A DNA stretch of 64,000 nucleotides, taken from positions 8,655 to 72,654 of the forward strand of contig JBFLYO010000016.1 of the NCBI GenBank assembly GCA_040756745.1. The letters are read 5' to 3'. The DNA is from Bacteroidota bacterium. GTDB taxonomy: Bacteria > Bacteroidota > Ignavibacteria > UBA10030 > UBA6906. The stretch's first letter is position 1; every line of letters begins with the position of its first letter. Below the pieces are notes generated by a model, which searched no databases, was not told the DNA's origin, and worked only from the letters and a program-made list of their open reading frames with translations. Below, in pieces: positions 34,009 to 61,050 of this stretch. Both the position numbers and the translations under genes were made by a program.

Positions 34009-34076
34009 CCCCTCCCTTGAAAAGGGAGGGGAGTCGCTGATGCCTTGTTCACCCTTCCCCTTTTCAAGGGGAAGGG
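34009..34076. terminator. two tandem GC-rich hairpins (CCCCTCCCTT-gaa-AAGGGAGGGG and CCCTTCCCCTT-ttc-AAGGGGAAGGG) at the 3' end of the 40567..34124 operon
   Basis: Two perfect 10- and 11-bp stems with 3-nt loops, 20 nt apart, 48-115 nt downstream of the stop of gene 34124..35701. No U-tract follows, so this is either a U-less terminator or a REP-like element. Confidence 0.35.
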
Positions 34077-34123
34077 GCGGGGTTAGGGTTACATGAGAGA
34101 GCAAAAAGATGTGCGAGGCGACG

Positions 34124-35701: not shown

Positions 35702-35722
35702 TTGAGGCTCCTGGGATCACAG

Positions 35723-35811
35723 GGAGTAGTCAGTAGTCAGAATTCAGAAATCAGAAAGATGGTGTATAATCTTCTGCTCTCTGACTTCTGACTACTGACT
35801 TCTGACTACTC
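35723..35811. repeat. heptamer-repeat palindromic element (AGTAGTCAGTAGTCAGAATTCAGAAATCAGAAAG / inverted copy)
   Basis: Left arm 35723..35757 and right arm 35777..35811 are near-perfect reverse complements. Each arm is built of 7-nt units (GTCAGTA/GTCAGAA/TTCAGAA), separated by an 18-nt centre. Lies in the 134-bp spacer between two operon genes. Confidence 0.6.
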
Positions 35812-35835
35812 TTTGCATTCTCGTACGACCTTGAT

Positions 35836-36579
35836 TCATATGCCGCTGACTGGCATCACTGCCTGTACGTCAGCCCGGAAGACCCACGTGCCGGGCGCGA
35901 CGAAATGTGTTGCAAATGCCCGCCGTACCCGATCCTTCGACCGGTTAGCATACGAGCCATGGATGGTCAGGCCTGAAAAAAACACTCCTCCCCCCTTCGG
36001 GACGGCGAGGAATTTCATGGCCGACCGGTCCACACCGTCGATCTCGAACGAGTAAAAGACCTGCTTCCATTCCCTGCCGTCGCGATCGCGCATGAGGTGC
36101 TCCGACTGCCACACCTGGTGGTCTTTCATGGAGGTCGCTTTGTGCGTATCGTACAGTCCTTTCGCGTGGCTTCCCGGCAGAACGCAGAGCCCGCCGTTCT
36201 CCTCGTCCGTGTCGCTCATCGCAAGCCAGCACGCCATGAGCGTGTTGGGCTCGTTGGGAAGGTAATGCGTATCCTGATGCAGGGCCGTCCCCTTCGCTTC
36301 TTCGCCGGGAAATTTCTCCAGGTACATGGTCTGGACAATGGAAGGTGTGCCTCCGAGCATCTGCTCTGCGACTCCGGCGATATTCTGATGGGTCGCAATG
36401 GCCCGCCAGCGCGCGTCCCGCTTGTGGTTGTCGAGCCGCGATCGCCACTCCTTCGACTGCGCCGCCTCGTACGCCACGTACTCGTCCACCTCGCTGGGCG
36501 TGAGGAGGCCCACAACAACGATAAAGCCCTCGTCCCGGTACCGCGAGTGCTCTGCCGCGGAGAACATTCGTCCGCTCAT
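35836..36579 (-). CDS. phytanoyl-CoA dioxygenase (PhyH) family Fe(II)/2-oxoglutarate oxygenase
   Basis: 247 aa. HQDTHY (H-x-D facial triad) and a distal His in LTIHGSYAN are typical of the PhyH family. Confidence 0.75.
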   Translation of the reverse strand: MSGRMFSAAEHSRYRDEGFIVVVGLLTPSEVDEYVAYEAAQSKEWRSRLDNHKRDARWRAIATHQNIAGVAEQMLGGTPSIVQTMYLEKFPGEEAKGTALHQDTHYLPNEPNTLMACWLAMSDTDEENGGLCVLPGSHAKGLYDTHKATSMKDHQVWQSEHLMRDRDGREWKQVFYSFEIDGVDRSAMKFLAVPKGGGVFFSGLTIHGSYANRSKDRVRRAFATHFVAPGTWVFRADVQAVMPVSGI

Positions 36580-36583
36580 GGCT

Positions 36584-37372
36584 TCACTCCTTCGCCACGA
36601 TGGGGAAGAGAGGTCCGTGGAACTCCTCGCCTGGCTTCAGATTGGCACGATCGCCCACGATATGCGGGAGCTTTTTATATGTCGTCCCGGCTGGCATAAA
36701 GATGGTGACCATGGCGCGACGAGCGGTGGAGGTGACGTTGGGACCGGCGTAGTGGAACGTCAGGCCGTTATGGAATGTACAGCTCCCGGGTTTCAGCTCA
36801 ACGGCCACCGGCTTCACGCCGCGGTACGACGGCGGCAGGAGCGCCAGGGGGCCGTCAGCCGTCGTGTTCCCCAGATCGACGGGGTCAAGCGGACCCACCT
36901 TATGCGATCCCGGCACGAACCACATGCACCCCCGCTCCACCGTCACATCATCGAGTGCCATCCAGCAAGAGAGCCCCCCTGGTTCGTTCATCGGCCAGTA
37001 CACGGTGTCCTGATGCCAGGCCGTGGGCTTGCTGTCCTCCGGATACTTAATAAGAGCCTGGTCATGCCAGAGACGAACATGACGCGAACGGGTCAGACGT
37101 CGCGCGATCTCCGCGACGCGCGGGTGACGGGCATACTCCTCCAGCACCGGGTATCGCTCCCACAGGTTGACCATCTGCAGGAACACTTTGGTGTATCCCT
37201 CGTCGGTCCGGGGCCCAAGGTTCAACTGGAATTTGTTCTTGTCTTCGACCGCCCGGTCGAGCGCTGCGCGCAGGATCTCGACCTCCTCCATCGTGAGAAC
37301 GTCGTCAAGCCGGACGTAGCCGTTCTCCTCGTAGAAGCGGACCTCTTCTTCACTGATCGGGTACGCGTTCAT
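36584..37372 (-). CDS. phytanoyl-CoA dioxygenase (PhyH) family Fe(II)/2-oxoglutarate oxygenase, second copy
   Basis: 262 aa. WHQDTVYWP (H-x-D) and a distal His (TFHNG). Only distantly related to its neighbour, so not a recent duplicate. Confidence 0.75.
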   Translation of the reverse strand: MNAYPISEEEVRFYEENGYVRLDDVLTMEEVEILRAALDRAVEDKNKFQLNLGPRTDEGYTKVFLQMVNLWERYPVLEEYARHPRVAEIARRLTRSRHVRLWHDQALIKYPEDSKPTAWHQDTVYWPMNEPGGLSCWMALDDVTVERGCMWFVPGSHKVGPLDPVDLGNTTADGPLALLPPSYRGVKPVAVELKPGSCTFHNGLTFHYAGPNVTSTARRAMVTIFMPAGTTYKKLPHIVGDRANLKPGEEFHGPLFPIVAKE

Positions 37373-39518
37373 GCATCCTCCACATGTACTGGGGGTCGAT
37401 GTGTGGTTCGTCCTTTCCGTGCTTTTCCATTAAGGCGATCTTGCGGGAGAGCAGGTCGCCGAAATTCTCTCCGTAGCAGTGGAGCGTCTCGCCGATCGTC
37501 GAAACGGGCATGAAGTCCGTACGGCTCGACCGCCAGAGGTCGAGAAGATCCCGCGCATTGGCCAGCTCGTCCTCCACCATCGCGTCACAGAGCGATCTGA
37601 AGTGCGTCCTGTCCTTGGGATCGGTCGCGCCGCAGTATCCGTGGACCGACTCGATCCAGGCAACCATGTTGCGCAGCGTCCTGTAAAACGCGCGCGCAGC
37701 CCTCAGTCGGTCATGCAGGTCGGCAAATACGGGGGGTGTGCTGTTCTTCGAGCTCAGTGTGTCGACGCACTGTTCGATGGCCGACGTGAGCGGTGCGAGA
37801 ACTTTTCTATCAATCGTGCGCCGCTTTTCTCCCGCCTCCTCGACCGTAAGGAAATTCCACATCATGTCATTGTTCAGGTCGACACGGGCCGGGTTGTTGA
37901 ACGTCGCAAGGAGATACTCTTCATAATAGCGGCGATCCTGTTCAGGAATTGCGTCAATGTCGGGCACGAAGGGTCTGACCCAGAGCCGGAACCACGGGAA
38001 ACCGAATGTGCTCATGGGAACGCCTGACGGGAATCCTCGGACGGCGCTGTCTGATCGGTTCCAGAGGTCGAGCAGTTCCGCAGCGCCTGAAACGCCTCCC
38101 CAACGTTCCGACCATATGCGGAGGACGTCGTCGATCGACCGCTCCGGCGTCAACTGGAACGCCCGGACCACTTCTCTATTGATATCGAACGGCGCCAATG
38201 ATGCCGGTGTACCTCCTGTGAGCACGAAGTCACCGCCCCGCGCACGGAGAGCGCCCAGTCGTTCATGGACCAGCCGCGGGTACGGGACGCCGAGAACGTT
38301 GTTGTCGCCGACCTCAGTTTTGGCATGGGTTTCCGCCCCGGCCCTCCGCAGCATATCGTTCTCCTGATCCAACCCGCCTCCTTCGAAATAGCCGAAGTCG
38401 CCTGCGTCGATCCCGTCCCCCATCCCCCGAATGATCTCCGGTCGTTCGTCCCGGAACGAGCCGAGGTCGCAGACCAGGCGGAACGCCGGGTTGGCCCGGC
38501 GGCCCTCGTCGCGCAGGAGGCGGAAATACTTGAGAACGTTGCCGGCCGCGGCGCGTGCGATCTCCGCATGGCTCTTCCATTCGCGGATCAGGTAGGGACC
38601 ACCATTTCTCCCCGCATACAGCGCACTCACGAACTCGAAGCCCGACCCGCTGTCGTTCGTCCAGAGATAGATGAACCCGATCTCGGGAATCTCTGCCATG
38701 ATCGCTCGGACCAGTTCCCGGTAATGCTCCTGCACCGCCGGATGGGCCATCGCGAGCGTGTAGCGGGGACGGAGCGTTTCCCGCGGATGGTCCACCCGTG
38801 CCCCACGCAGGTATCCGTACTCCTCCCAGAATTCCTCCGGCATTGAGCGCGGAGAGTTGATGTGCAGACCGGGAACGAGTCCGTACCGGAGAGCGCTCTG
38901 TGCCGTCTCTTTCAGGAATTTGAGATTCGCAGCAAGATACCCGGATGGGTAATACCCGCGGAGGAGGGTGCTATCGACGAACTGATCGAGGTCGGGGCTG
39001 TAGTCGTAGAACCAGTGATAGACATCCCCCGGTGGACTCGACTCGAACGGACGGGCAACGCCCAGTCCGTTCACGGTCATGTGCGTGAATCCCTGCGCGG
39101 CAAGCTGCCGGCAATACCCTTGCCGGTCGAAATGCCGCGCATGCCGCAAACTCCCGACCAGAAAGTCACTCAGATTCCTGAGCCAGCGAAACGACGCCGG
39201 TCGTCTCTTCTCCTCGCCGAACTCCTCCGCGCTCCGTTCTCCCCACTCCTCCGTAGCCAGGCGCATCGCAGCGTAGAGCAGCGCGCCTTGCGACGCCCCA
39301 ATCGCAATGCCCCCGTTGTGTGAGACGGTAAACGAATACCAGGGGGCCTCTTCCCCTTCGAGCCGGAGCGTCAGGACAGGGGCCTCCCCCGCCGTGCTGA
39401 CGCGGGCGCGGGGGCAGCAGGTACGAAGGAGCTCCTCAGCGACTGTTTGCTCTGCAATGGTGGCGCCCTGGCGGAGACGGATGGCGCGGATCTCCCTCAG
39501 GATCTCTCGTACGGTCAT
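37350..39518 (-). CDS. hypothetical protein (722 aa, cytoplasmic)
   Basis: Long ORF with sensible codon usage and operon context, 14 nt after the MetE-like gene. No recognisable motif and no signal peptide. Confidence 0.5.
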   Translation of the reverse strand: MTVREILREIRAIRLRQGATIAEQTVAEELLRTCCPRARVSTAGEAPVLTLRLEGEEAPWYSFTVSHNGGIAIGASQGALLYAAMRLATEEWGERSAEEFGEEKRRPASFRWLRNLSDFLVGSLRHARHFDRQGYCRQLAAQGFTHMTVNGLGVARPFESSPPGDVYHWFYDYSPDLDQFVDSTLLRGYYPSGYLAANLKFLKETAQSALRYGLVPGLHINSPRSMPEEFWEEYGYLRGARVDHPRETLRPRYTLAMAHPAVQEHYRELVRAIMAEIPEIGFIYLWTNDSGSGFEFVSALYAGRNGGPYLIREWKSHAEIARAAAGNVLKYFRLLRDEGRRANPAFRLVCDLGSFRDERPEIIRGMGDGIDAGDFGYFEGGGLDQENDMLRRAGAETHAKTEVGDNNVLGVPYPRLVHERLGALRARGGDFVLTGGTPASLAPFDINREVVRAFQLTPERSIDDVLRIWSERWGGVSGAAELLDLWNRSDSAVRGFPSGVPMSTFGFPWFRLWVRPFVPDIDAIPEQDRRYYEEYLLATFNNPARVDLNNDMMWNFLTVEEAGEKRRTIDRKVLAPLTSAIEQCVDTLSSKNSTPPVFADLHDRLRAARAFYRTLRNMVAWIESVHGYCGATDPKDRTHFRSLCDAMVEDELANARDLLDLWRSSRTDFMPVSTIGETLHCYGENFGDLLSRKIALMEKHGKDEPHIDPQYMWRMHERVPDQ

Positions 39519-39532
39519 GGAACCGGTCCGCG

Positions 39533-40567
39533 TCAGTCCCCTTTCCCTCCCAGCTCGTTCCGGACGATCCGGGTTCCTTCCACCATGGCCTTCAGTTTGG
39601 CGAACGCCCTCGCTCGCGGCATGAACTTCATGCCGCAGTCGGGACTGATGTACATTTTTTCGGCAGGGATGTGCTCCAGTGCCTGCCGGATGCGGCGCAT
39701 AACGACGTCCGGAGTTTCCACCGCTTCGTCTTTCACATCGATGACACCGACGACGATTTCCTTGTCGGTAGGGTACTTTGTGAAAAGCTCCAGTCCGACC
39801 CCGTCCGACACGGCGAACTCCATGCTGAGCTGGTGCGACCGGGTTTCGAGAATCGCCGGAAAGAGCTCGTCATACTGTCCTTTGAAGAGGCGCTTGAGCT
39901 GGTAGTTGCCGTAGCAGACGTGCAATGCGATCTTCGCTTTTACGCCGTCCACGAGGCGGTTGAAGGACTCCACGAGCCACGGCATGTCCTGCGGATACCC
40001 GACCCAGACCGGCTCATCGATCTGGATGAAATCGCACCCCGCTGCGACGAGGCCCCGTAACTCGGCATTGAGGATTGCGGCCAGATCGAACACCAGTTCC
40101 TTGTCCGACGGATAGTACTCGTTTGTCGCGCGTTTCGCCAGCATCTGGGGACCGGTCACGCACACCTTCGTCCACGCCGTGGCATGCGCCTTCAGGAAGC
40201 TGAAGTGCTTGTCCATCCCCAGCGACCCCTTCGACCGCACCTTGTCGCCGACTATGGGGTCGAGCATCTGGATGCTTGGATCCAGGTTGCCGATCGGCTT
40301 CATCTTCCCTGCCATGTCGAACCCGTGGATTCGCATGGAGAAGAAGTTCACCATTGTCTCGCGCCGGAGTTCGCCATCGGTGATGATGTCAACGCCCGCC
40401 CGCTCCTGGTCAAGGATGGCCGACCTTACGGCGTTGTCGTGCGCTTCTTCCACCTGCGAGGGGGTCAGGACTCCATTCACTCCGAGCGTGCGGACCTGTT
40501 CAAGCCACGCGGGGAGGGAGTAGCTACCGATGACGGTGGTGGGGAGGAGAGGGAAAGAATCGGCCAT
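39533..40567 (-). CDS. cobalamin-independent methionine synthase (MetE) C-terminal-domain-like / UROD-MetE fold methyltransferase family protein
   Basis: 344 aa. N-terminal TTVIGSYSLPAWL and the His/Cys/Glu zinc-ligand pattern (HVCYGN...SPDCGMK) typical of the stand-alone MetE C-terminal domain family. Confidence 0.7.
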   Translation of the reverse strand: MADSFPLLPTTVIGSYSLPAWLEQVRTLGVNGVLTPSQVEEAHDNAVRSAILDQERAGVDIITDGELRRETMVNFFSMRIHGFDMAGKMKPIGNLDPSIQMLDPIVGDKVRSKGSLGMDKHFSFLKAHATAWTKVCVTGPQMLAKRATNEYYPSDKELVFDLAAILNAELRGLVAAGCDFIQIDEPVWVGYPQDMPWLVESFNRLVDGVKAKIALHVCYGNYQLKRLFKGQYDELFPAILETRSHQLSMEFAVSDGVGLELFTKYPTDKEIVVGVIDVKDEAVETPDVVMRRIRQALEHIPAEKMYISPDCGMKFMPRARAFAKLKAMVEGTRIVRNELGGKGD

Positions 40568-40626
40568 TGCGTTCTCAACGTGAATTGCGTCCGGCGGAAT
40601 TCAGATATCTGATATCAGAATTCGAA

Positions 40627-40671
40627 GGGGGGTAACCACCTTCGACAACCCACGCAAGGCGATTACCCCCC
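40627..40671. terminator. stem-loop GGGGGGTAA ... TTACCCCCC between the PorV-like and MetE-like genes
   Basis: 9-bp GC-rich stem enclosing a 27-nt loop. It is followed by TTT on the plus strand and by a U-containing tract (UUCGAAUUCUG) on the minus strand. Adjacent is a TCAGAT/ATCTGA repeat palindrome at 40597..40623. Confidence 0.3.
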
Positions 40672-40706
40672 TTTGCTGTTGGTCGGGACAGCAGTACGGC
40701 AGGTCG

Positions 40707-41732
40707 CTACTTCATGCCGAGCGAGAGGGTGATTCTGTGGACCGAATCAACAAGATCCATCTTCGTGAAGGCGTAGTCAACACGGATCGAGTAGTCGGAC
40801 AACTTCGTCATGAACCCCGCCCCCGCCGTGAAGCTCTCGACGGTCGTTTTGATTGCCGGCGAGAAACTGTTGCCGCCGTCGTCGACCCCCGAGTAGTTGA
40901 ACTTGTAGCCGCCGCGGACGGAGATCATCTCCATGAAGGTGTACTCGCCTCCCACGAAGTAGTACTGTAGGCCGTCCTGTGGCTTTACCGCGTCAACGGT
41001 GACCATCAAGGAATTCATGTCATCCGTGAGCGGTGTCATCGATGTACCGATGCTGAACGTCAGCGGGATGGGAGCGGCAAAATCGTAGAACTTCATGTCG
41101 CTCCCGAGGTTGCTGAGTCGCGCACCGATGTTCCACCCCAGAATGCCGATGCTGTACACCGATCCGAAGTCGAACGCAACTGCCGTGGCCGTCTTATCAT
41201 CGATCTTCTCGCTGATGTACTTTGCCGAGAGGCCGAGCGAGAGCTGGTCGGTGATGGCACGCGCATAGCTGACCTGGAGGACCATGTCGCGGTAGTCATA
41301 CGTGTCGCTCGTCACCTTGTCGATCTCGAGTGCCCGCAGTTCAGCGCTTCCGCCGGGATACACATCGCGGTCTGCGGGAATCCCCGAGAGGCCGAACGTC
41401 ATGAAGCCGAGACCGATCGTCCCGACATCCTCGAGGTTGTAAGATATCGAGGCCGCCTGCTGATTCAGATCGGCAAACCACTTGTTGTACGTGAACGCCG
41501 CCTGCGCGCGCTGGTCGGTGGCCAGCGTAATGCCGGCGGGATTCCAGTACATATTTGTCACGTCTCCCGTCAGTGAGGTGACAGCCGAGCCGAGGCCAAC
41601 CTGCCGCGCACCGACGCCGATCTTCAGGAACGCGGCCGAATTGATGCCGGCCTTCCTGTTCTGGGCGTCGGACGTGCCAGCCACCAGCGTCACCATCAGG
41701 AGGATCGCCGTCAGAACATACATTCGTTTCAT
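40707..41732 (-). CDS. PorV/PorQ-family outer-membrane beta-barrel protein (type IX secretion associated)
   Basis: ORF 40707..41750 trimmed to Met7 (MKRMYVLTAILLMVTLVAGTSDAQ signal). The N-terminal motif AAFLKIGVGARQVGLGSA matches the PorV/PorQ family signature. Beta-barrel-like alternating pattern, C-terminal aromatic-rich end. Confidence 0.6.
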   Translation of the reverse strand: MKRMYVLTAILLMVTLVAGTSDAQNRKAGINSAAFLKIGVGARQVGLGSAVTSLTGDVTNMYWNPAGITLATDQRAQAAFTYNKWFADLNQQAASISYNLEDVGTIGLGFMTFGLSGIPADRDVYPGGSAELRALEIDKVTSDTYDYRDMVLQVSYARAITDQLSLGLSAKYISEKIDDKTATAVAFDFGSVYSIGILGWNIGARLSNLGSDMKFYDFAAPIPLTFSIGTSMTPLTDDMNSLMVTVDAVKPQDGLQYYFVGGEYTFMEMISVRGGYKFNYSGVDDGGNSFSPAIKTTVESFTAGAGFMTKLSDYSIRVDYAFTKMDLVDSVHRITLSLGMK

Positions 41733-41760
41733 AGGACTGTCCTCTATCATAGATGGTCAG

Positions 41761-44289: not shown

Positions 44290-44299
44290 TCGATCGGCA

Positions 44300-47317: not shown

Positions 47318-47683
47318 ATCGTTCCTCCTTCGATCATGAATTGAGTAGGGTGGGTGGATGGATTGACGTGATGTAACGGATGCATCGTACACTCGTGCGG
47401 TCAGCGCGGCATGGCTTCCCGTCGGGGGAGACCGCATGCTGCGGTGACGGAATGCGAACAGGAATGAGAACTGAGTCTGGAACCTGTGCGAACGCCCGGG
47501 CAGGAGATATTCACCCGGCGTTCCACTAATAGAATGGTGTTTTATCACCGGAAAAATAGCACATTGCCGATGTTTTGTCAAGCGCTTTCTTTCCCCGGAG
47601 CGTTGCGGATGAACCGGGCATTCTCTACTTTACTCCCGACGCGCTGTGAAACCCGATTCCACTATTGAAATGAGTGAGGCAGG

Positions 47684-48499
47684 ATGCGCATTCTCGTCGC
47701 GCGCTCGAAATGGGAGTTCGACACACTCCCCCTCGATGACTTTCTACGGAAGATATCGGGCGCCGGTTTCGACGCGTCCGACATCCACCTCCCTTCACTG
47801 AAGGAGTCCCCGGAAGAAACCGCCGCCCTGCACCACCGCTACCGCCTTTCTCTTATGGCCCTGATTACCAGCGAGGGGAAAACGCCAGAGGAGCATTGCC
47901 GTTCGCTCGAGGAACGGCTCGCCCTGGCCGCCCGGTGCAGCGCGGGGCATGTGAACTGCCATACGGGAAGGGACATTTTTACACCAGAGGAGAATATCAC
48001 AATTTTCAGGGCCGCCGCAGATCTTGCTCGCCGTTACGGGCTGCCCATTTCACACGAAACTCACCGCGGACGCGCCCTGTTTAGCCTTCCGGCAACACGC
48101 GATCTTTTGCGGACACTCCCGGAACTCAGGATAACCGCAGATTTTTCACACTGGTGCTGTGTGCATGAATCGCTACTCCAGGACCAGGAAGACGCTCTGG
48201 CACTCGCCATCGAGCGCTCTGATTACATCCACGCCCGGATCGGCCACGCGGAAGGACCCCAGGTCAATGACCCCCGTGCCCCTGAATGGGACACAGAGCG
48301 CAATATCCACCTGGAGTGGTGGAAGCGGATCGCGCGGGAGCACGTAAAACGCGGCTCGGAACGCCTGTTCGTCTGTCCCGAATTCGGCCCCGCTCCCTAC
48401 ATGCCGCAACTGCCGCATACGCGGCAGCCGGTCACGGATCTGTGGGAAGTCACGCTGTATATGAAAGACCTTCTTCGTAAAGCACTGGAGGAGAATTAA
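47684..48499 (+). CDS. sugar phosphate isomerase/epimerase (xylose-isomerase-like TIM barrel) family protein
   Basis: 271 aa. TIM-barrel family pattern with His/Glu/Asp metal ligands (ISHETH, HARIGH). Confidence 0.65.
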   Translation: MRILVARSKWEFDTLPLDDFLRKISGAGFDASDIHLPSLKESPEETAALHHRYRLSLMALITSEGKTPEEHCRSLEERLALAARCSAGHVNCHTGRDIFTPEENITIFRAAADLARRYGLPISHETHRGRALFSLPATRDLLRTLPELRITADFSHWCCVHESLLQDQEDALALAIERSDYIHARIGHAEGPQVNDPRAPEWDTERNIHLEWWKRIAREHVKRGSERLFVCPEFGPAPYMPQLPHTRQPVTDLWEVTLYMKDLLRKALEEN

Positions 48500-48517
48500 C
48501 CACAGAGGCACAGAGAA

Positions 48518-48646
48518 GATTGAGATCGAGATTGAGATTAAGGAAAAGGGGTGGAGCAGGTTAAGGTCAAGGGGGCCTTCGCCCGCCCTCAACCTTAACC
48601 TTGGCCTTGACCTCAATCTTGATCTCAATCTTGATCTCTATTGAGG
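48518..48646. repeat. hexamer-repeat palindromic intergenic element (GATTGAGATCGAGATTGAGATTAAGG ... CCTCAATCTTGATCTCAATCTTGATCTC)
   Basis: Left arm (GAGATT/GAGATC units) and right arm (AATCTC/GATCTC units) are reverse complements. The inner part holds nested GGTTAAGG/CCTTAACC and GGTCAAGG/CCTTGACC pairs. Fills the spacer between the TIM-barrel and cupin genes. Confidence 0.6.
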
Positions 48647-48650
48647 TTCT

Positions 48651-49100
48651 ATGATTATTGCCGATCTTGCAACGATTTCGGGACGCACGTACCCCGCGAG
48701 GAGGAGGACCCAGAACCTCGTAGGAGGAGCATCCCCGATCCAGGCAAATAATTTCTCCATGGGGATGGTCACGCTCGAGGCGCACGGCGGACAGGTGCCG
48801 TGGCACAATCAGGAACAGGAAGAGGTGTATCTGATCCTGAACGGCACCGGCGAAATGTGCCTTGGAGAGGAGCGGTTCACCGTAAGGTCTGGTCAGGCGG
48901 TGTTTATTCCGCCAAAGGTATTTCACCAGCTCACGAACACCGGACCGACTCCCATGACCATGCTCTATTGTTACGGGCCGGCGGGTGATGTCGCCCACTG
49001 GCGGCAGGAGCTGGAAGGGACGCTGCCACGGGCCGGCATCGAGGCGCCGCCTCTCCCCTACGGCGCAGCGCCACAATGCACCGATGCGCCCGCTCGGTAG
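48651..49100 (+). CDS. cupin-domain protein
   Basis: 149 aa. Two-motif cupin signature (G-x5-PWHNQEQEEVYLILNG ... G-x5-FIPPKVFHQLTN). Confidence 0.7.
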   Translation: MIIADLATISGRTYPARRRTQNLVGGASPIQANNFSMGMVTLEAHGGQVPWHNQEQEEVYLILNGTGEMCLGEERFTVRSGQAVFIPPKVFHQLTNTGPTPMTMLYCYGPAGDVAHWRQELEGTLPRAGIEAPPLPYGAAPQCTDAPAR

Positions 49101-49171
49101 TTTTCCTTGCGGCGGTTCCATGAATCGTCGTTTCCCGTGTTCACCCAGAACCGACCACCGGAGATGTATTC

Positions 49172-50341: not shown

Positions 50342-50392
50342 CAACTCCACGATACCGGCACGCCTCACATCTATGCACTTCTGAGAAGCCTG

Positions 50393-51157: not shown

Positions 51158-51254
51158 TGCTATACTGATCGTCACCATCCTCGCAGCCCTGCAGCATGTC
51201 ACTGCTGTCCCTGGTTTCACGCACTGCATCGTTCATTTCCCATCTCACATCCCG

Positions 51255-53861: not shown

Positions 53862-53937
53862 GGAGACCGCGCACCGGATATTGTTTTCACCGCCGCACAT
53901 AGTTATGTTGACATCACCACACACTTCACCGCCGATC

Positions 53938-55278
53938 ATGCGCGTACCCCCCTGCACCCTCTTCGTACTATTGTTCGCTCTTCCTACGTCCGCACAGCCC
54001 CTGGACCCGCAGCACCTTGCCGAAACAGTGAAGCGGGAGTTTCTTCATGCATGGAACGGATACAAGAAGTACGCGTGGGGACATGACGGCTACCGCCCCC
54101 TCAGCAAGACCCCGTATGACTGGTATGCCGAGACGTTTTATTTGACCCCCCTTGAGGCCCTGGACACGATGACGCTGATGGACCTCACGGAGGAAGCCGA
54201 CAGCACGCGAGAGTTCATCGCAACGCATCTCTCGTTCGACAAGGATGTGGAGGTGGGCGTGTTTGAGTTCACGATCAGGATTCTGGGAAGCCTGATCGCG
54301 AACTTCCAATCGTCGGGAGATGCCCGGCTGCTGGCGCTTGCCGACTCACTGGCAACGCGCATGACGCCGGCGTTCATCAGCGGCACGGGCATGCCGTACC
54401 GATTCGTAAACCTCAGAACCGGCGCGGTCAGGGGCGAGGTAAGCAACCCGGGCGAGATCGGAACGCTTCTGGTCGAATGGGGCTCGTTGTCGGCGCTGAC
54501 GAGGAAACCCGCGTTCTACAACTATGCCAAGAACGCCCTCCTGCGGGTCTATGAACACCGCTCGCCGCTCGGCCTCGTGGGGGATGCGATCGACGTCAAC
54601 ACCGGAGCATGGAAGGGGACAGACAGTCACCTGAGCGCGTGCATTGATTCCTATTATGAATACCTCGTCAAATCCGCGTTGCTGTTCGACGACGATGATT
54701 GCCGGCTCATGTGGCGCACGTCCTATGCTGCAATCAACGCATATCTGCTGGACTCGAGCGCATCGGGGTTCTGGTACGGCCATGCGGACATGAATACAGG
54801 AAAGCGGACGAGAACCTGGTTCGGCGCCCTGGATGCGTTCTTCCCCGCGGTGCAAGTGCTCGCGGGCGACGTTCCGCGCGCAGAGCGTCTCATGAAGTCC
54901 TGCTACAGGATGTGGACCGCATACGGCATCGAGCCGGAGCAGTTCAACTATGCCACTGGGGCCGTGGAAAAACCTAAGTACTTCCTCAACCCGGAGATTA
55001 TAGAATCCGCCTACTATCTTTACATGGCAACGGGCGATACGCTATACCAGAAGATGGGGGAAGCCTTTCTGAGCGATCTCATGGCATGGTGCCGCACTGA
55101 TGAAGGGTATGCGGAGCTCAAGAATGTCGTCACAAAGGAAAAGATGGATCGGATGGAGCCCTACTTCATGGCAGAGACGATGAAGTATCTCTACCTTTTG
55201 TTCGCGCCGCCTGATACGCTTCCATTTGACCGAGTGATATTTACAACAGAAGCCCATCCGATCCGGAGAAGCTGGTAA
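53938..55278 (+). CDS. glycoside hydrolase family 47 (class I alpha-1,2-mannosidase)
   Basis: ORF 53845..55278 trimmed to Met32 (MRVPPCTLFVLLFALPTSAQP signal). GH47 blocks FEFTIRILGSLI, DSYYEYLVKS and the overall (alpha/alpha)7 pattern. Confidence 0.8.
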   Translation: MRVPPCTLFVLLFALPTSAQPLDPQHLAETVKREFLHAWNGYKKYAWGHDGYRPLSKTPYDWYAETFYLTPLEALDTMTLMDLTEEADSTREFIATHLSFDKDVEVGVFEFTIRILGSLIANFQSSGDARLLALADSLATRMTPAFISGTGMPYRFVNLRTGAVRGEVSNPGEIGTLLVEWGSLSALTRKPAFYNYAKNALLRVYEHRSPLGLVGDAIDVNTGAWKGTDSHLSACIDSYYEYLVKSALLFDDDDCRLMWRTSYAAINAYLLDSSASGFWYGHADMNTGKRTRTWFGALDAFFPAVQVLAGDVPRAERLMKSCYRMWTAYGIEPEQFNYATGAVEKPKYFLNPEIIESAYYLYMATGDTLYQKMGEAFLSDLMAWCRTDEGYAELKNVVTKEKMDRMEPYFMAETMKYLYLLFAPPDTLPFDRVIFTTEAHPIRRSW

Positions 55279-55321
55279 CGACGGGCGGTTCCCATTTTCG
55301 CCATTTAGGCAGCAGTCACGT

Positions 55322-58201
55322 ATGACCTCGATGAAACGCGCAGTTGTTATTATCACCGTCGCACTGGGCGCACACGTCGGCGCATCCGCCATATTCGCTC
55401 AGGACCGGCCAAAGAAGCTCCTCACGCATGATGTATATGATTCGTGGAAGCGGGCCACCGGAGAGGCGGTCTCTCCCGACGGGGCCTGGATTCTGTACAC
55501 CCTTGAGCCGCAGGAGGGGGATGCCCGGCTTGTCGTTGCGGACGCACGAAGCGGCCGAACTGATACCATTGCCCGCGGTGTCAACGGTTCGTTCACGTTC
55601 AATTCCGACTACGCGGTGTTTACAGTGAAGGCGCTGTATGCCGACGTGAAAAAGGGGAAGATCGCGAAGAAGAAGGGGGATGACCTGCCAAAGGACTCAC
55701 TCGGCATCCTCGCGCTTGGTTCATCTTCGTTGGCGAAAATCCCGCGCGTGAAGTCGTTCAAGCTCCCCGAACGAGGGTCGGGGTGGGTCGCGTATCAGCG
55801 CGAGAAGGACCTTGCGCCGGGAGATTCCGTGAAGCGACAGAAGCCGCGTGGAGGCGGGGACGACGCCGATGAACAGTCTGACGACGCCAAAAAGGAACGT
55901 GGGACTACAGTCGTCGTGCGGGAACTCTCAAGCGGAAAGGAGTACCAGTTCCCATTCGCGCGAGACTTCGAGTTCACAAAGGACGGCTCAAAGCTGATCG
56001 TGACGACAACAGGGAACGATTCCACCGCTCTTCCCGGGGTCTTCGTATTCTCCACTGCCGCGCACGCGATTGATACCATTGCCAGCGGGAAGGGCTCGTT
56101 CCGACAGCCGGCCTGGGACGAAGAGGGAACGCAAGCAGCGTTTGTCGCAGACCGCGACACATCGAAGGCCAGGCAGCGGTACTTCTCCCTCTACTTGTGG
56201 AGAGCCGGCAAGGATTCCGCGACATTGGTGGCGGACACGACAACTCCGGGCATGTATCCCCATTGGCTGGTGAGCGAGAACGGCCGTTTGAAGTTCTCCA
56301 AAGACGGATCAAGGCTCTTTGTTGGAACCGCGCCGGTCCCGCTGCCCGACGACACAACAATGAACGATGAGGAAACCGCCAAACTCGACATCTGGAGCTG
56401 GCAGGACCATTTCATCCAACCCCAGCAGCTCAAGATGCTTGATGAAGAGAAGAAACGGTCCCACCAGGCCGTCGTGCACCTCGCCGACCGGGGATTCGTT
56501 CAATTGGGCGACACCTCGCTTCCGGCCATCGACATCGGCGATGAAGGAAACGCAGAACTTGGACTCGGGACGTCAGATCTGTCGTACCGTCGCAGCCGAT
56601 CATGGGAGGGATACTCGCGCTATGATCTCTTTGCCGTCGATCTCCGATCCGGCGCGAGGCGGCGCCTTGTCGCAGGCGTGCGCGGGCCGGTGCATCTCTC
56701 TCCGGGCGGCAGGTATGCGGTCTGGTATGACACCGGGAAACGGCATTGGTTTGCCGTTCCGCTCGCTGGAGGAAAACCGGTGAACCTCACCGCGAATGTC
56801 AGTGTCCCCCTGTACAATGAACTGAACGACGTGCCGGACCACGCGGCCCCTCACGGATTGCTCGGCTGGATCGGGCGGGACAGTCTCTTCCTCGTGTACG
56901 ACCGGTATGACATCTGGGTCACCGATCCGACAGGGACACGCCCTGCGTGGTGCATGACCCGGGGCGCGGGGCGGAAGGGGAACCTGCGCTACCGCTACGT
57001 GCGGCTTGATCCCGAGGAGCGATTCATTACGGCTGGATCGCGCATGCTCCTCAGGACATTCGACGACATGGACAAGCGAGCCGGTTTTGCGGCGACTGAG
57101 GCAGGCACCGCGGCGACGCCGCGTTTGCTTGTGCTCACCCCGCATGACTACGGGACACCGCAGAAAGCGAAGCAGGCAGGGACGCTGATCTTCACCCGGA
57201 GCACTTTCAGGGAATGCCCGGATCTTTACACGAGCTCCATGGAGTTTTCCGAACCGAAACGGCTGAGCGACGCCAATCCTCAACAAGACAACTACCTCTG
57301 GGGTTCGGTTGAACTGGTGCATTGGAAACCGCCAAAGGGGAAAGAGCTTGACGGGCTTCTCTACACTCCGGAGGGCTTTGACGTCAGGAAGAAATATCCG
57401 ATGATCGTGTACTACTATGAAAGAAACTCCGATTTCCTCCATCGCTACTTTGCACCTGCGCCGAGCGCATCCACGGTCAATATCCCGCTCTATGTCAGCA
57501 GAGGATATATCGTTTTCGTCCCGGATATTCGGTATCGCGTAGGGCATCCCGGCGGGAGCGCACTGGAGTGCATCGTTTCGGGGGTGAAGGCATTGATCGC
57601 TCGGGGGTTCGTCGATCCGGACCGGATCGGATTGCAGGGACAGAGCTGGGGAGGATATCAGACAGCATTCCTGGTCACCCGCACCCACATGTTCCGTGCA
57701 GCGATGGCAGGTGCCGTGGTGTCCAACATGACCAGCGCCTACGGGGGTATCCGCTGGGGGACGGGTTTCGTGCGCATGTTCCAGTATGAGAAATCCCAGA
57801 GCCGGATCGGCCGGACGCTCTGGGAACGTCCCGACCTGTATATTGAGAACTCCCCCCTCTTTCGGGCCGACAGCATACGGACGCCGCTCCTTTTGATGCA
57901 CAATGACGCCGACGGCGCCGTGCCGTGGTACCAGGGGATTGAGATGTTCAACGCTCTCCGGCGGCTCAACAGGCCGGTCTGGATGCTCACCTACAACGGC
58001 GAAGAGCACAACCTCGTCCAGCGGAAGAACCGGAAGGATCTCTCCGTCCGCATGCTGCAGTTCTTCGATCATTACCTGATGGAGAAGCCGGCGCCACGAT
58101 GGATGACGGAGGGACTGCCCGCCATTGAAAAAGGGAAAACGCTGAAATACGAACTCAGCGGATCGCCGGCACTTCCCCGGGGGAACCATGACGCGCCGTG
58201 A
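55322..58201 (+). CDS. S9-family serine peptidase (prolyl oligopeptidase / DPP-like) with N-terminal beta-propeller
   Basis: 959 aa with a signal peptide. C-terminal alpha/beta-hydrolase domain with nucleophile elbow GQSWGG, acid MHNDADGAV and His in EEHNL. Confidence 0.8.
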   Translation: MTSMKRAVVIITVALGAHVGASAIFAQDRPKKLLTHDVYDSWKRATGEAVSPDGAWILYTLEPQEGDARLVVADARSGRTDTIARGVNGSFTFNSDYAVFTVKALYADVKKGKIAKKKGDDLPKDSLGILALGSSSLAKIPRVKSFKLPERGSGWVAYQREKDLAPGDSVKRQKPRGGGDDADEQSDDAKKERGTTVVVRELSSGKEYQFPFARDFEFTKDGSKLIVTTTGNDSTALPGVFVFSTAAHAIDTIASGKGSFRQPAWDEEGTQAAFVADRDTSKARQRYFSLYLWRAGKDSATLVADTTTPGMYPHWLVSENGRLKFSKDGSRLFVGTAPVPLPDDTTMNDEETAKLDIWSWQDHFIQPQQLKMLDEEKKRSHQAVVHLADRGFVQLGDTSLPAIDIGDEGNAELGLGTSDLSYRRSRSWEGYSRYDLFAVDLRSGARRRLVAGVRGPVHLSPGGRYAVWYDTGKRHWFAVPLAGGKPVNLTANVSVPLYNELNDVPDHAAPHGLLGWIGRDSLFLVYDRYDIWVTDPTGTRPAWCMTRGAGRKGNLRYRYVRLDPEERFITAGSRMLLRTFDDMDKRAGFAATEAGTAATPRLLVLTPHDYGTPQKAKQAGTLIFTRSTFRECPDLYTSSMEFSEPKRLSDANPQQDNYLWGSVELVHWKPPKGKELDGLLYTPEGFDVRKKYPMIVYYYERNSDFLHRYFAPAPSASTVNIPLYVSRGYIVFVPDIRYRVGHPGGSALECIVSGVKALIARGFVDPDRIGLQGQSWGGYQTAFLVTRTHMFRAAMAGAVVSNMTSAYGGIRWGTGFVRMFQYEKSQSRIGRTLWERPDLYIENSPLFRADSIRTPLLLMHNDADGAVPWYQGIEMFNALRRLNRPVWMLTYNGEEHNLVQRKNRKDLSVRMLQFFDHYLMEKPAPRWMTEGLPAIEKGKTLKYELSGSPALPRGNHDAP

Positions 58202-59174
58202 GCTGGTGATACGAACCATTCGGTTCCAGGGAGCGGAACGGATCCCATACGATCTCCCCGAACCCTACGGGTCGGATTTCTACTCAATTGAACTCGACCC
58301 TTCCCCCGATGCCCGGCCGGCCAGCGGGCGCGACGAGTGGGGAGCGCTCTGGGTGAACAAGGGGGGAATGCAGCTCGGCCAGGTGAAGGAGGTCCCGCTG
58401 GCTTCGTGGGATGATTTCAATTCGCTGGCCATACCGGACGTCAACGACCCGTCGCGATGGGCAGCCGTCCGCGGCGTCAGGCAGCGGGCCGGCGACGCAT
58501 TTGTCCTTGCCAAGGGGATCTCCCTCTACGAACGTATCCACTTCCTGAGAGGACTGGAGAACACCTGGGCCGATATCTACGATGAAACGGAGCGTTTGAA
58601 GTCTCTCATCGAAATCCTTCTGCAAATGAATTTCCGCGCGATCGAGCGCTACGCTGCCGAAGGGGCGGACGGATACCTCATCCCCGACGATTGGGGGCTG
58701 CAGGACACGCTGATGATCTCCCCTTCATCGTGGCGCGCGATCTGGAAGCCGTATTACGCGCGCCTCTTCAATGCCGTGCATGATGCCGGGATGCTGATGT
58801 TCCTCCACTCCTGCGGCTACATTGTGGACATTCTGGACGACCTGATCGGCATCGGACTGGACGTTGTGCACATGGATCAGCAGGAAAACATGGGTCTCGA
58901 GTTGCTCGGCCGCCGGTTCGGCGGACGGCTGACATTCTTTTCTCCCGTCGACATCCAGAAGACAATGGTCAACGGAACGATGGACGACATCCGCGCCTAT
59001 TGCCGTGCAATGGCGCATCATCTCGGCCGTCCGGAAGGAGGGTTCATTCCGCGATGGTACTCCGACCCCGCGGGTGCAGGCCACACGTCGGAGGCGCTGA
59101 AGACGATGTGCGAGGAGTTCCTCGCCATCAGCAGGTCACACAAACCCGTTTACCCCGATCGGATCTCCGCATGA
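58188..59174 (+). CDS. uroporphyrinogen-decarboxylase (URO-D)-like / MtaA-type methyltransferase-fold protein
   Basis: 328 aa. TIM-barrel URO-D family pattern (FLHSCGYIVDILDDLIGIGLDVVHMD). Confidence 0.6.
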   Translation: MTRRELVIRTIRFQGAERIPYDLPEPYGSDFYSIELDPSPDARPASGRDEWGALWVNKGGMQLGQVKEVPLASWDDFNSLAIPDVNDPSRWAAVRGVRQRAGDAFVLAKGISLYERIHFLRGLENTWADIYDETERLKSLIEILLQMNFRAIERYAAEGADGYLIPDDWGLQDTLMISPSSWRAIWKPYYARLFNAVHDAGMLMFLHSCGYIVDILDDLIGIGLDVVHMDQQENMGLELLGRRFGGRLTFFSPVDIQKTMVNGTMDDIRAYCRAMAHHLGRPEGGFIPRWYSDPAGAGHTSEALKTMCEEFLAISRSHKPVYPDRISA

Positions 59175-59272
59175 CCGCACGCCGGGATCTCGCAGAGTAA
59201 ACGGCCAGGCGTCTTCTTGACAGTTCTATCCCTTTTGCGGACATTCTGCACACCACGATACGGGACACTCTC

Positions 59273-60871
59273 ATGCACCCCATATTCCTCATTGCAAGCG
59301 GGGACCTTCGCCCGGCGGCCAACCGCAACTGCGAGCCGGCACAGGCCGCCATGGAACGCCAGATCGTCGACGCAGTGACGCGGCTCGGCGGCACGGTACG
59401 GCGCGCACATCCGTTCGATCCGCTCAAGCAACACAGCTTCATCGACAGCCAGCGCTACGGCATGGAGGTGTTTCGGTCGATCCCGCCTGCCGCTCCGTTG
59501 ATCGTTGCGGAAGCGGTGTGGCAGTACAGCCACCACGTGCTTGCAGGGCTCACAACGCACAGGGGGCCGATTCTAACGGTGGCCAACTGGAGCGGTACCT
59601 GGCCGGGGCTGGTCGGGCTCTTAAACCTGAACGCGTCGCTCATCAAAGCTGGGGTTCGGTACAGCTCCCTCTGGAGCGAGGATTTTACTGATCCCTTTTT
59701 TGTCAAGGGCTTGGCGAAGTGGATCAAGACCGGGAAGATCGTCCATAACACCTCGCAGGTCATCCCCTATGCCGCTGCCCGGGTTCCCGCGGCCGCTGCG
59801 GCGGCAGGCAAGAAATTCGCACAGGAGATGCGGGCCCAGAAGGCGATCCTCGGCGTGTTCGACGAAGGTTGCATGGGGATGTACAATGCGATCATCCCCG
59901 ATGAGCTTCTCCACGCTACGGGCGTATTCAAGGAACGATTGAGCCAGTCGGCCCTCTACGCGAGGATGCTCACGGTCAGTGAGGCCGACGCATGGAATGT
60001 CTACCGCTGGCTTGTGGATCGTGGTATGAGGTTCAACCTGGGTGCCAACGAAGAAACGGATCTTACCGAGTCGCAGGTGCTGCAGCAGTGCCGCATGTAC
60101 ATTGCCGCGGTACGCATCGCCGCAGAGTTCGGCTGTGATGCGATCGGCATCCAGTACCAGCAGGGCCTCAAGGATCTTGCCCCCGCCTCCGATCTTGCCG
60201 AAGGAATCCTGAACAACGTCGAACGTCCTCCAGTCTACGACGAACAGACGGGGAACGAACTTTTCCCCGGCGAAGCGGTGCCACATTTCAATGAGGTGGA
60301 TGAATGCGCGGGGCTCGACGCACTCGTGACGTACCGGCTCTGGCGCCGCCTCGGCATTCCCCCCGAGAACACACTTCATGACCTCCGATGGGGACGCTAC
60401 TATCGCGGGAACGGGATCGACGATTTCGTCTGGGTATTCGAAATCTCCGGCGCCGTCCCCCCTGCTCACTTTGAGAACGGTTATCGGGGTGCCACGGGTG
60501 AGCGACAGCCCCCGATGTACTTTCGGCTCGGCGGAAGCTCGATCAAGGGAGTGAGCAAACCGGGTCACGTGGTCTGGAGCCGTGTCTTTGTGGCAGAAGG
60601 TCGGCTCAACTTCGACACCGGCCTGGCGCGTGCCGTCGCGCTTCCTGCGGAGGAAACCGAAGAGCGGTGGCGTCTGACCACGCCGCAATGGCCGATCATG
60701 CACGCCGTGCTGGAAGGAGTGACGAGAGACCAGATGATGGCGCGACACAAGTCGAATCACATTCAGGTAGCATACGCACCAGATCGCTCCACGGCCCGAA
60801 AGGCAATGTTTATCAAGGCTGCCGCAATGAAGGAACTCGGGTTGCGAGTGAGCTTCTGTGGTGTGAGATAG
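59273..60871 (+). CDS. L-fucose isomerase-like family protein (putative aldose-ketose isomerase)
   Basis: 532 aa. N-terminal IFLIASGDLR resembles the FucI N-terminal PxIDGRR-type segment. Operon context is with sugar ABC transporter and FGGY kinase genes. Tentative. Confidence 0.4.
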   Translation: MHPIFLIASGDLRPAANRNCEPAQAAMERQIVDAVTRLGGTVRRAHPFDPLKQHSFIDSQRYGMEVFRSIPPAAPLIVAEAVWQYSHHVLAGLTTHRGPILTVANWSGTWPGLVGLLNLNASLIKAGVRYSSLWSEDFTDPFFVKGLAKWIKTGKIVHNTSQVIPYAAARVPAAAAAAGKKFAQEMRAQKAILGVFDEGCMGMYNAIIPDELLHATGVFKERLSQSALYARMLTVSEADAWNVYRWLVDRGMRFNLGANEETDLTESQVLQQCRMYIAAVRIAAEFGCDAIGIQYQQGLKDLAPASDLAEGILNNVERPPVYDEQTGNELFPGEAVPHFNEVDECAGLDALVTYRLWRRLGIPPENTLHDLRWGRYYRGNGIDDFVWVFEISGAVPPAHFENGYRGATGERQPPMYFRLGGSSIKGVSKPGHVVWSRVFVAEGRLNFDTGLARAVALPAEETEERWRLTTPQWPIMHAVLEGVTRDQMMARHKSNHIQVAYAPDRSTARKAMFIKAAAMKELGLRVSFCGVR

Positions 60872-61049
60872 GTTAAGGTTAAGGTTGAGGGTAAGGGTAA
60901 GGATCAGTAAGGGATGAAGGGAAATCTTGCGATGCCAAGGTTTCTCACATGAATTCCTCCCCAAATCCTTGCGAATCGTACTTCTCAACCTCACACTGTT
61001 GTTCCTGAAGCCGTTTCCCCTTAACCTTAACCTCATCTTTTCCTTAACC
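60872..61049. repeat. hexamer-repeat inverted-repeat element (GGTTAAGGTTAAGGTTGAGGGTAAGGGTAAGG ... CCCCTTAACCTTAACCTCATCTTTTCCTTAACC)
   Basis: Arms of GGTTAA/GGGTAA units (60872..60902) and their reverse complement (61017..61049). They flank a ~110-bp centre that itself has TCTTGCGA direct repeats. Fills the spacer between the isomerase-like gene and the ABC permease. Confidence 0.6.
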
Positions 61050-61050
61050 T

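Follow-up and report, generated by a model that had tools for sequence, protein, structure and literature searches.

We analysed a 64,000-nucleotide stretch (the window) of contig JBFLYO010000016.1, from a Bacteroidota bacterium of the class Ignavibacteria, for palindromic elements which lie between its genes and are built from tandem repeats of 6–7-nt units. The window carries ordinary carbohydrate-utilisation genes, including those for GH38, GH47, sugar kinases, SSF transporters and a TonB-dependent receptor, and protein comparison finds its relatives among Ignavibacteriota, Bacteroidota and Kryptonia metagenome-assembled genomes, with a top protein identity of 84%. Against an overall G+C content of 0.61 the elements form AT-rich islands. 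The genes flanking the four spacers of main concern here, at 35.7, 40.6, 48.5 and 60.9 kb, are co-directional in every case and none of these spacers separates convergent genes. Copy numbers of elements and units refer throughout to the 64-kb window.

Tandem arrays were called with Tandem Repeats Finder (TRF), structure outliers across the window were located with a sliding 120-nt fold, and the z-scores of folding are relative to dinucleotide shuffles (n=200). The three longest inverted repeats of the window are the spacers at 35.7, 48.5 and 60.9 kb, which have a common architecture consisting of a purine-rich array of 6–7-nt units and the inverted complement of that array (coordinates in Table 1). 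RNA folding of these three large elements gives stems of 35–53 bp with z-scores of −4 to −8, in agreement with the 30–60-bp hairpins that an earlier note on this DNA had anticipated, and the picture obtained with DNA folding parameters matches. The eight strongest outliers of the sliding fold all come from 48.5 kb, which is the strongest structure of the window, and from 35.7 kb. The other strong outliers likewise all lie between genes. TRF and inverted-repeat searches recovered the tandem arrays and inverted copies which the earlier note had described at 35.7, 48.5 and 60.9 kb, as well as its coding array at 7.5 kb. It had also counted a fourth spacer among those with long inverted repeats, but the sequence at 40597–40623 is an AT-rich palindrome of only 11 bp which on its own reaches z −2.0, with 6 of the 200 shuffles as stable.

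Table 1. Positions of the array-built elements, their arms and the other structured features of the window (strand as assigned to the feature; units of the arms at 35.7 kb are read on the + strand).
Feature	Position	Strand	Units, evidence or setting
Heptamer-array hairpin (35.7 kb)	35723–35812	−	TRF, inverted repeat, folding
Arm of 35.7-kb element	35723–35758		GTCAGTA/GTCAGAA/TTCAGAA units
Arm of 35.7-kb element	35777–35812		CTCTGAC/TTCTGAC/TACTGAC units; loop 18 nt
Nested hexamer-array hairpin (48.5 kb)	48516–48641	+	TRF, inverted repeat, folding
Outer arm of 48.5-kb element	48516–48543		AGATTG/AGATCG units
Outer arm of 48.5-kb element	48605–48641		CAATCT/TGATCT units
Inner arms of 48.5-kb element	48557–48575 and 48586–48604		CAGGTTAAGGTCAAGGGGG and CCCTCAACCTTAACCTTGG
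5′ arm of 60.9-kb element	60866–60902	+	AGGTTA/AGGTTG/AGGGTA hexamers; starts at the TAG stop (60869–60871) of the upstream gene
3′ arm of 60.9-kb element	61015–61055	+	CCTTAA/CCTCAT hexamers, following the 5′ arm after ~120 nt
Small heptamer palindrome TCAGATA TCTGATA TCAGAAT	40597–40623	−	Upstream of MetE-like start codon (5′ untranslated region or promoter)
Conserved single-copy terminator-like hairpin GGGGGGTAA...TTACCCCCC	40625–40673	−	Downstream of PorV-like gene
Structured spacer	34001–34083	−	Inverted repeat; z −3.5; downstream of gene 34124–35701
Coding hexamer array, (GAGATT)x5.5 on the + strand	7501–7533	−	TRF period 6, 5.5 copies

The element at 35.7 kb occupies the space between the stop codon of a PhyH gene (35836–35838) and the AGGAG ribosome-binding site (35708–35712) of the next gene, which starts with GTG at 35701. 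Its stem begins 23 nt past the PhyH stop and ends 10 nt ahead of the AGGAG site. TRF reports period-7 arrays at 35725–35757 and 35771–35810, and the inverted repeat (35724–35811) has arms of 35 nt with 86% complementarity and a gap of 18 nt. The predicted fold contains 35 pairs at −53.8 kcal/mol (z −6.1), and none of the 200 shuffles is as stable. The arms are NNNTCAG arrays with differing variable triplets, which appear in the fold as 3x3 internal loops, such that the arms are not exact unit-by-unit mirrors of one another. In addition, a 14-nt duplication (100% identical, 35781–35810) is confined to one arm. These two features together indicate that the arms slip independently, while the repeated unit still permits them to pair. 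The hairpin loop also contains a perfect TATAAT, which together with a TTCAGA 16 nt upstream (35743–35770, + strand) agrees with a promoter at 10 of 12 positions. The genes are on the other strand, and this may be a chance occurrence or an antisense promoter.

The TIM-barrel and cupin genes are separated by a spacer which the nested hairpin at 48.5 kb fills. Here the stop codon lies at 48497–48499, a GAGG sequence at 48643–48646 and the ATG at 48651. The stem starts 16 nt past the stop and ends 1 nt ahead of the GAGG and 9 nt ahead of the ATG. Arrays of period 6/12 were called at 48517–48539 and 48606–48638, the inverted repeat (48516–48632) has 34-nt arms of 85% complementarity, and folds of −69.9 and −70.2 kcal/mol were obtained for the two strands (z −6.6 and −8.0; 53 pairs), a stability reached by 0/200 shuffles. 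At 60.9 kb, period-6 arrays at 60870–60902 and 61019–61051 coincide with an inverted repeat (60867–61042) whose 28-nt arms are 79% complementary and stand 120 nt apart; the inverted copy is therefore present as described earlier, although not at the 110-nt distance then given. This spacer folds at −67.9 kcal/mol (z −4.0), again with no shuffle of the 200 as stable, and its 3′ arm adjoins the possible TTG starts (61051 or 61066) of an ABC-permease gene. Among 240 intergenic regions of the clade, the two best elements of the window rank third and fourth in excess structure, the 35.7-kb element being third with z −7.2, and the other strong structures in that set are mostly ordinary terminators with T-runs.

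No full-length sequence is common to the elements, and units are instead shared pairwise. The sequence GGTTAAGG occurs seven times in the window (0.57 expected), always in the 48.5-kb core or the 60.9-kb arms, TCAGAA-type heptamers are common to 35.7 and 40.6 kb, and GAGATTGAGATT is common to the outer arms at 48.5 kb and the GAGATT units of the 7.5-kb coding array. Within the window, GGTTAAGG and the TCAGAA-type units are thus each found in two spacers. The repeat family envisaged in the earlier note holds in the sense of one architecture with pairwise shared units, but not in the sense of near-identical copies. Which arm of a palindrome comes first, the purine-rich or the pyrimidine-rich one, reads alike on both strands, and arm order is therefore a genuine property of the element concerned. 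In the three large window elements the purine-rich arm leads, as it does, for array pairs defined by TRF, in 19/19 of the AGG family, 4/4 of the CTGA family and 7/11 of those with other units. It is also first in all eight class 3 pairs of Geobacter (see below), and contigs labelled viral give counts of 5/0 and 3/0 in favour of the same order.

Gene order is conserved in the relatives, so that orthologous spacers are directly comparable, and the comparison reveals rapid change in both the length and the sequence of the arrays between related genomes. The spacer between PhyH and the next gene measures 4–159 nt in 12 relatives. Low-complexity hairpins are present at this position in L048, L051 and the window with mutually unrelated units, and the hairpin in L067 is plainer. 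The TIM-barrel to cupin spacer measures 15–71 nt in six loci (five distinct relatives), none of which has a hairpin, and in L073 it contains GAAGATC x2 directly after the stop, resembling the start of the 48.5-kb array of the window. Upstream of the MetE-like gene, differing heptamer arrays are found in at least 10 genomes. The short spacers and the other units in the relatives argue for birth and turnover in place, and not for insertion of a mobile unit.

A census of arrays in 1.14 Mb (the window plus 74 related loci; ~6.5% intergenic, about 93% coding) counted period-7 arrays of three or more copies 13 times in intergenic and three times in coding DNA, and period-6 arrays twice in intergenic and 11 times in coding DNA. 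Many of the clade arrays have an inverted partner, as seen for GTGAAGA in L029, for CACGAAGG/CTTTGTGA in L030 and L032, and in L025; further paired arrays are CACGGAGA/TCTCCGTG in L043 and CTCTGCGT/CGCAGAGG in L048. Arrays without a partner are found in L001, L050 and L063.

The unit families were described earlier as specific to this lineage, but they recur in contigs of several other groups. A metagenome scan for AGGTTAAGGTTAAGG matched at least 120 loci. Among the matches listed, 127 sites, 22 have a CCT-phase array (at least three hexamers) within 300 nt downstream and three have one upstream; of these three, L096 has a downstream partner as well and the other two are TTAGGG telomere repeats of eukaryotic appearance. 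The paired sites among the matches listed are AGGYTR...loop...YARCCT hairpins like the 60.9-kb element and the 48.5-kb core, on contigs with a G+C content of 0.35–0.61. For the 15-mer scans of metagenome and viral contigs the raw counts are weakly informative, many single hits being due to chance by a rough estimate, and only hits with a partner array were used. Telomere-like TTAGGG/CCCTAA contigs also appeared in the 15-mer scan (L085, L102, L168; also L190, L095, L172) and are probably eukaryotic and unrelated.

Flanking proteins assign L111 to the Desulfuromonadales (its dihydroorotase is 87% identical to proteins so named), L094 and L097 to Bacteroidota/Bacteroidales, L177 to Candidatus Fischerbacteria and L193 to 'Deltaproteobacteria'. 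In most cases the metagenome hairpins start 0–7 nt past a stop codon or provide the TAA themselves. Their flanking genes are mostly co-directional, twice divergent and never convergent, which departs from the earlier statement that the elements occur only in convergent or co-directional settings. On the L111 contig, pyrB and pyrC have an AGG-type hairpin between them, and pyrC is directly followed by another hairpin, (TCAGAAT)n...(TTCTGAC)n, with AAGGAG and an ATG behind it. This second hairpin is of the same design as the 35.7-kb element and nearly the same in sequence. Arrays of the Geobacter class 2 unit (TCTCCGTS) were found in the relatives L043 and L068, and 12 permuted control units gave 0 arrays; permuted control units overall gave almost none. 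Scans of viral contigs yielded further examples in L269, L276 and L365. Two composite arrangements were seen among the contigs: a single spacer of L349 (3440–3580) contains the array types AGGTTA, GATTAAAGTTGTAG, CTTTCAA and CAGCCT/TAACCT in series, and L093 (2480–2880) contains the AGG hairpin twice, inside a ~300-bp direct repeat.

Paired tandem-repeat sites of a comparable kind were described in the genome of Geobacter metallireducens (Aklujkar et al. 2009; PMC2700814). Class 1 consists of 24 pairs (GTTGCTYN), class 2 of 21 pairs (TCTCCGTS) and class 3 of eight pairs, each with five MTYCTGA heptamers, on opposite strands, the first located 3′ of a gene and its partner 5′ of the gene that follows (PMC2700814). 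Pairs of class 3 lie, for example, between proB and proA and between moaA and mosC. The sites were proposed to be binding sites of a global regulator, as a hypothesis only, and insertion sequence (IS) elements lie at a constant distance from class 1 sites (PMC2700814). Likeness to the Geobacter sites lies in 3–5 tandem units of 7–8 nt, an opposite-strand partner at variable distance and the 3′/5′ placement relative to genes. The MTYCTGA consensus of class 3 fits both arms of the 35.7-kb element, which also has the opposite-strand layout and the purine-rich arm first. Indeed, (MTYCTGA)x3 gives five overlapping matches with 1–3 mismatches, all within 35730–35805 (0.01 expected), the left arm matching on the − strand and the right arm on the + strand, and the 13-mer CTGAATTCTGACT of this element is common to Gmet_I301A and other Geobacter sites. 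The Geobacter arrays are 50–100 nt apart, whereas the loop at 35.7 kb is 18 nt and pairing of the arms is nearly complete. For Geobacter, no hexamer families like GAGATT and AGGYTR of the window are described, and the host phylum differs.

Cyanobacterial repeats of the short tandemly repeated repetitive (STRR) type are known as few units at high copy number per genome, and their units CCCCAGT, TTGGTCA and CAACAGT differ from those of the window. What they have in common with the present elements are tandem 7-nt units, a location between co-transcribed genes and the ability to form hairpins. For STRR heptamer hairpins between hupS and hupL, transcript stabilisation or translational coupling was suggested (PMC2670836). 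More generally, heptamer repeats are over-represented in intergenic DNA, an excess attributed to polymerase slippage (PMC4679880, PMC4692102), with TAACTGA repeats in Beggiatoaceae, Cyanobacteria and Bacteroidetes (PMC4679880) and GGGAATC repeats in Xanthomonas (PMC4692102). These long simple sequence repeats (LSSRs) resemble our elements in the intergenic heptamer excess, the frequent location beside start or stop codons, the empty state of the same spacer in close relatives and the occurrence of some inverted pairs, and the TAACTGA repeats have a CTGA core in common with the 35.7-kb units. They are mostly direct arrays without a partner, however, whereas the window elements regularly have an inverted partner and a long stem. 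With at least three head-to-tail copies of a 5–11-nt unit, non-triplet periods concentrated in intergenic DNA and rapid turnover, the elements can be identified with good confidence as paired short-unit tandem-repeat arrays of the STRR/LSSR kind, with units of 6–8 nt.

Other identities do not fit. Repetitive extragenic palindromes (REPs) and bacterial interspersed mosaic elements (BIMEs) are intergenic imperfect palindromes within operons, some of which stabilise upstream mRNA, in Enterobacteria and Pseudomonas. REPs comprise hundreds of near-identical 20–40-nt copies per genome and are tied to a RAYT transposase. The window elements are likewise intergenic palindromes, but each has its own sequence made from tandem units, and they differ in unit, loop and length instead of following a common consensus. 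The likeness to miniature inverted-repeat transposable elements (MITEs) suggested in the earlier note fails on similar grounds. The whole element is a palindrome with no terminal inverted repeats around a core, a check of the flanks found no target-site duplications, and the orthologous spacers of relatives, which hold other units or none, vary continuously in length and content and do not show presence or absence with sharp boundaries. No element passes a terminator scan, and a stem that, as here, is followed by no U-tract (tails CCCUGUGAUCCC, UAUUGAGGUUCU and UUUGUCUGACUC) is not an intrinsic terminator. A search of Rfam found no family at the gathering threshold and gave only chance matches to microRNA-precursor and snoRNA models, at 20–28 bits versus 49–184, and no tRNA or tmRNA genes were found. 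The only small open reading frames (ORFs) in the spacers are spurious antisense or overlapping ones, the KIEIEI...LNLDLY reading at 48.5 kb having no preceding start codon. Mimicry of ribosome-binding sites was also considered and rejected: shuffles of equal composition match the 16S rRNA tail ACCUCCUUA just as well as the non-AGG purine arms do (mean z of the arms +0.24), and for non-Geobacter arms the value of +0.65 indicates, if anything, weaker pairing.

We propose that these paired STRR/LSSR-type arrays arise in place and act on mRNA between cistrons, a statement which, taken as a whole, we hold with slightly more doubt than conviction. The arrays would originate in the spacers by unit slippage combined with inverted duplication or co-expansion of the arms, would turn over quickly and would not be transposed as units. 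The flanking genes are co-directional and closely spaced, and the spacers are therefore probably transcribed as part of polycistronic mRNA. Once transcribed, the arrays would pair into a stem-loop of 35–53 bp extending from just past the upstream stop to about 10–20 nt before the next start, and because repetitive arms can pair in several registers such a stem would survive the gain or loss of units. It could block 3′ exonucleases, would be long enough for cleavage by RNase III, an enzyme specific for double-stranded RNA, and might insulate neighbouring cistrons while holding the stop and the next start close together, which would help to explain why self-complementary expansions are tolerated. 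The early mRNA of phage T7 contains intercistronic hairpins which are cut by RNase III and have stems of >20 bp, internal loops and no U-tract. The likeness to these is one of possible working and not of membership, as they have no sequence relation to the window elements. A role as an RNA-level stabiliser, processing site or insulator is something we suggest only tentatively; the mRNA stabiliser or attenuator of the earlier note is plausible.

Several observations weigh against a role in mRNA. That the spacers are transcribed and that the stems form in vivo are assumptions, and orthologous spacers do not conserve the hairpins, so that any function would have to be dispensable. A greater stability of the sense than of the antisense strand through G-U pairs, taken as a sign of selection on the RNA, was weak and inconsistent: 12 hairpins of relatives gave a mean of −4.5 kcal/mol with p = 0.05; 12 AGGYTR hairpins showed no G-U strand bias (p = 0.52) and the window elements are about equal on both strands. 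At 60.9 kb, arms that stand 120 nt apart are not what a simple hairpin would normally show. Finally, a purely structural role predicts neither the recurrence of units across phyla nor the purine-first order, both of which point to a sequence-specific factor or mechanism.

The main rival is a neutral by-product, in which slippage creates arrays in tolerant spacers and only those that fold back, and so keep stop and start close, escape purifying selection. This agrees with the patchy presence of arrays in orthologous spacers and the different units of different genomes, with the unpaired arrays of L001, L050 and L063, with the recent 14-nt duplication in one arm only of the 35.7-kb element and with the expansion of a similar hexamer array inside a signal peptide, and slippage is also the published account of the heptamer excess. 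We nevertheless regard it as somewhat unlikely, as it leaves unexplained why a few unit families (NTYCTGA, YCTCCGTG and AGGYTR) recur across phyla when permuted controls are almost without arrays, and why the purine-first order is so strict (19/19 and 4/4 array pairs, 22 versus 3 sites among the metagenome matches listed, and 5/0 and 3/0 in viral contigs). The fixed arm order, and the return of the same units in one genome as well as in different phyla, favour a reading of the arrays as binding sites for a sequence-specific protein, either a nucleoid-associated protein or global regulator on DNA or an RNA-binding protein, with the hairpin secondary. Such a protein would also suit the variable, non-complementary DNA between the arrays in Geobacter and at 60.9 kb, and was the proposal made for the Geobacter sites with their IS elements at a fixed distance from class 1 (PMC2700814). 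However, the units vary widely between elements of one genome and between orthologous spacers, the complementarity of the arms is far above what two independent arrays of sites would need, and the test for resemblance to ribosome-binding sequences was negative. We know of no protein ever identified for paired tandem-repeat sites, and consider this explanation unlikely. A broader reading, which we consider quite improbable, is that of one bacteria-wide system: a small and non-random set of units (NTYCTGA, YCTCCGTG, AGGYTR, GAGATY and others), found together in unrelated phyla and placed purine-first between stop codon and ribosome-binding site, would have a defined role in the processing or coupling of cistrons within operons. 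Instead of plain slippage, something conserved would then lie behind the units, either a partner such as a nuclease or RNA-binding protein or a process such as templated copying that generates them.

The hairpins could also be bidirectional terminators or pause sites that work without a U-tract, with a purine-rich 5′ arm that would make the RNA duplex strong and a pyrimidine-rich 3′ arm that would make the RNA:DNA hybrid weak. Their start at or just past stop codons, a purine-first order on both palindrome strands that would suit either direction, and a T-run after the stem in the relative L094 all accord with this, but the three window elements lie within strings of closely spaced co-directional genes, with the next ribosome-binding site immediately downstream, the terminator scan calls none of them, the clade has ordinary T-run terminators and no example between convergent genes was found, which makes this very improbable. 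To a mobile family moved by a transposase encoded elsewhere, in line with the REP/MITE likeness of the earlier note, we give very little credence. The elements are intergenic palindromes, share units between spacers and have similar sequences in distant genomes and in contigs labelled viral. Moreover, IS200/IS605 and RAYT enzymes, which are transposases acting on single-stranded hairpins, leave no target-site duplication, so that its absence is not a full exclusion. Set against this, no full-length consensus exists between any two elements, all loops and unit orders differ, and neither terminal inverted repeats nor target-site duplications nor a transposase or RAYT domain were found, the 40 window proteins scanned containing no transposase domain. 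The short array of similar units at the same position in the orthologous spacer of L073 suggests growth in place. An assembly artefact (collapsed or chimeric low-complexity sequence), finally, is a practically negligible explanation. The source is metagenome-assembled and low-complexity palindromes are hard to assemble, and collapsed sequence was a concern of the earlier note as well, but the flanking genes are intact and ordered as in dozens of relatives. Numerous independent assemblies show the same architecture and units, as does the finished genome of an isolate, G. metallireducens, sequenced from clone libraries. The array pairs are a real feature and not a lineage-specific mobile element, and the unit set found across phyla and the order of the arms are most worth following.

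To our knowledge, paired tandem-repeat hairpins have been mentioned in only a few genome papers since 1990 (STRR, the Geobacter sites and TAACTGA), with no function or origin established for them. New here are the same architecture and units, now seen both in an uncultured Bacteroidota/Ignavibacteriota lineage and across several further phyla, the fixed arm order with the purine-rich array first, and the typical span from stop codon to next ribosome-binding site. If the arrays do act on mRNA, they would represent a common and overlooked means by which expression is tuned inside operons; otherwise they provide a clean natural case of slippage building and maintaining long palindromes. G. metallireducens, a host of such sites, is cultivable and genetically tractable.

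The remaining structured features of the window are of other kinds. In the 40.6-kb spacer, the small palindrome has a longer version at the orthologous position in the relative L068. Most of the structure in this spacer is supplied by the adjacent hairpin at 40625–40673, which falls outside the paired-array class. It has a single-copy counterpart of the same stem sequence just upstream of the MetE-like gene in 21 relatives (among L003–L072), where GGGGTAATCnCC...GGnGATTACCCC, with loops of 10–50 nt, is followed by a T-rich run, and 16 further relatives have AATAGTCAGGGTG...CCCTGACTATTTTT at the equivalent site; the sequence conservation of this type of stem is unusually strong for a terminator. 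The spacer at 34001–34083, absent from the earlier note, contains the homopyrimidine/homopurine hairpins CCCCTCCCTT..AGGGAGGGG and CCCTTCCCCTT..AAGGGGAAGGG nested in an outer stem. It is of low complexity but has no tandem unit array, and is therefore of a different type from the paired arrays.

The coding array at 7.5 kb lies 15–47 nt past the ATG (7548) of a gene for a BNR/Sortilin-like protein, in whose signal peptide it specifies the n-region residues LNRNLNLNLT. It is absent from a paralogue of 41% identity and from 120/120 of the homologues retrieved, and is a private hexamer expansion of this lineage only, tolerated because a period of 6 keeps the reading frame. The gene belongs to a two-gene cassette (an unknown protein of ~610 aa and a BNR/Sortilin-like protein of ~345 aa) which is present twice in tandem, at 4689–7557 and 7554–10414. 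The two copies are 44% and 41% identical, values which indicate an old duplication. The earlier note had placed the repeat at the junction of the duplicated cassette, but a link between the two was rejected, as the duplication is old and the array is a private insertion in the signal peptide of one copy.

Three minor observations concern other parts of the window. A 19-nt motif, GGTTCRCCGTTAATCGGAT, is found at 31519–31537 and 33892–33910 (+ strand), in two consecutive spacers that lie upstream of genes on the minus strand, and again in partial and inverted form at 31575–31593 (− strand), making three matches in all versus 0.01 expected; it may be an operator or promoter element. An apparent gap of 491 nt after 62960 is coding, with an FGGY_N carbohydrate-kinase domain on the + strand in 62963–64000, and on this basis the minus-strand ORF at 63452–64000 is probably spurious. 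Lastly, an AT-rich hairpin, CTAATAAAACATTGTTTTATTAG, lies at 21283–21305 in the spacer between gene 21394–22944 and the gene for an IclR-type regulator.

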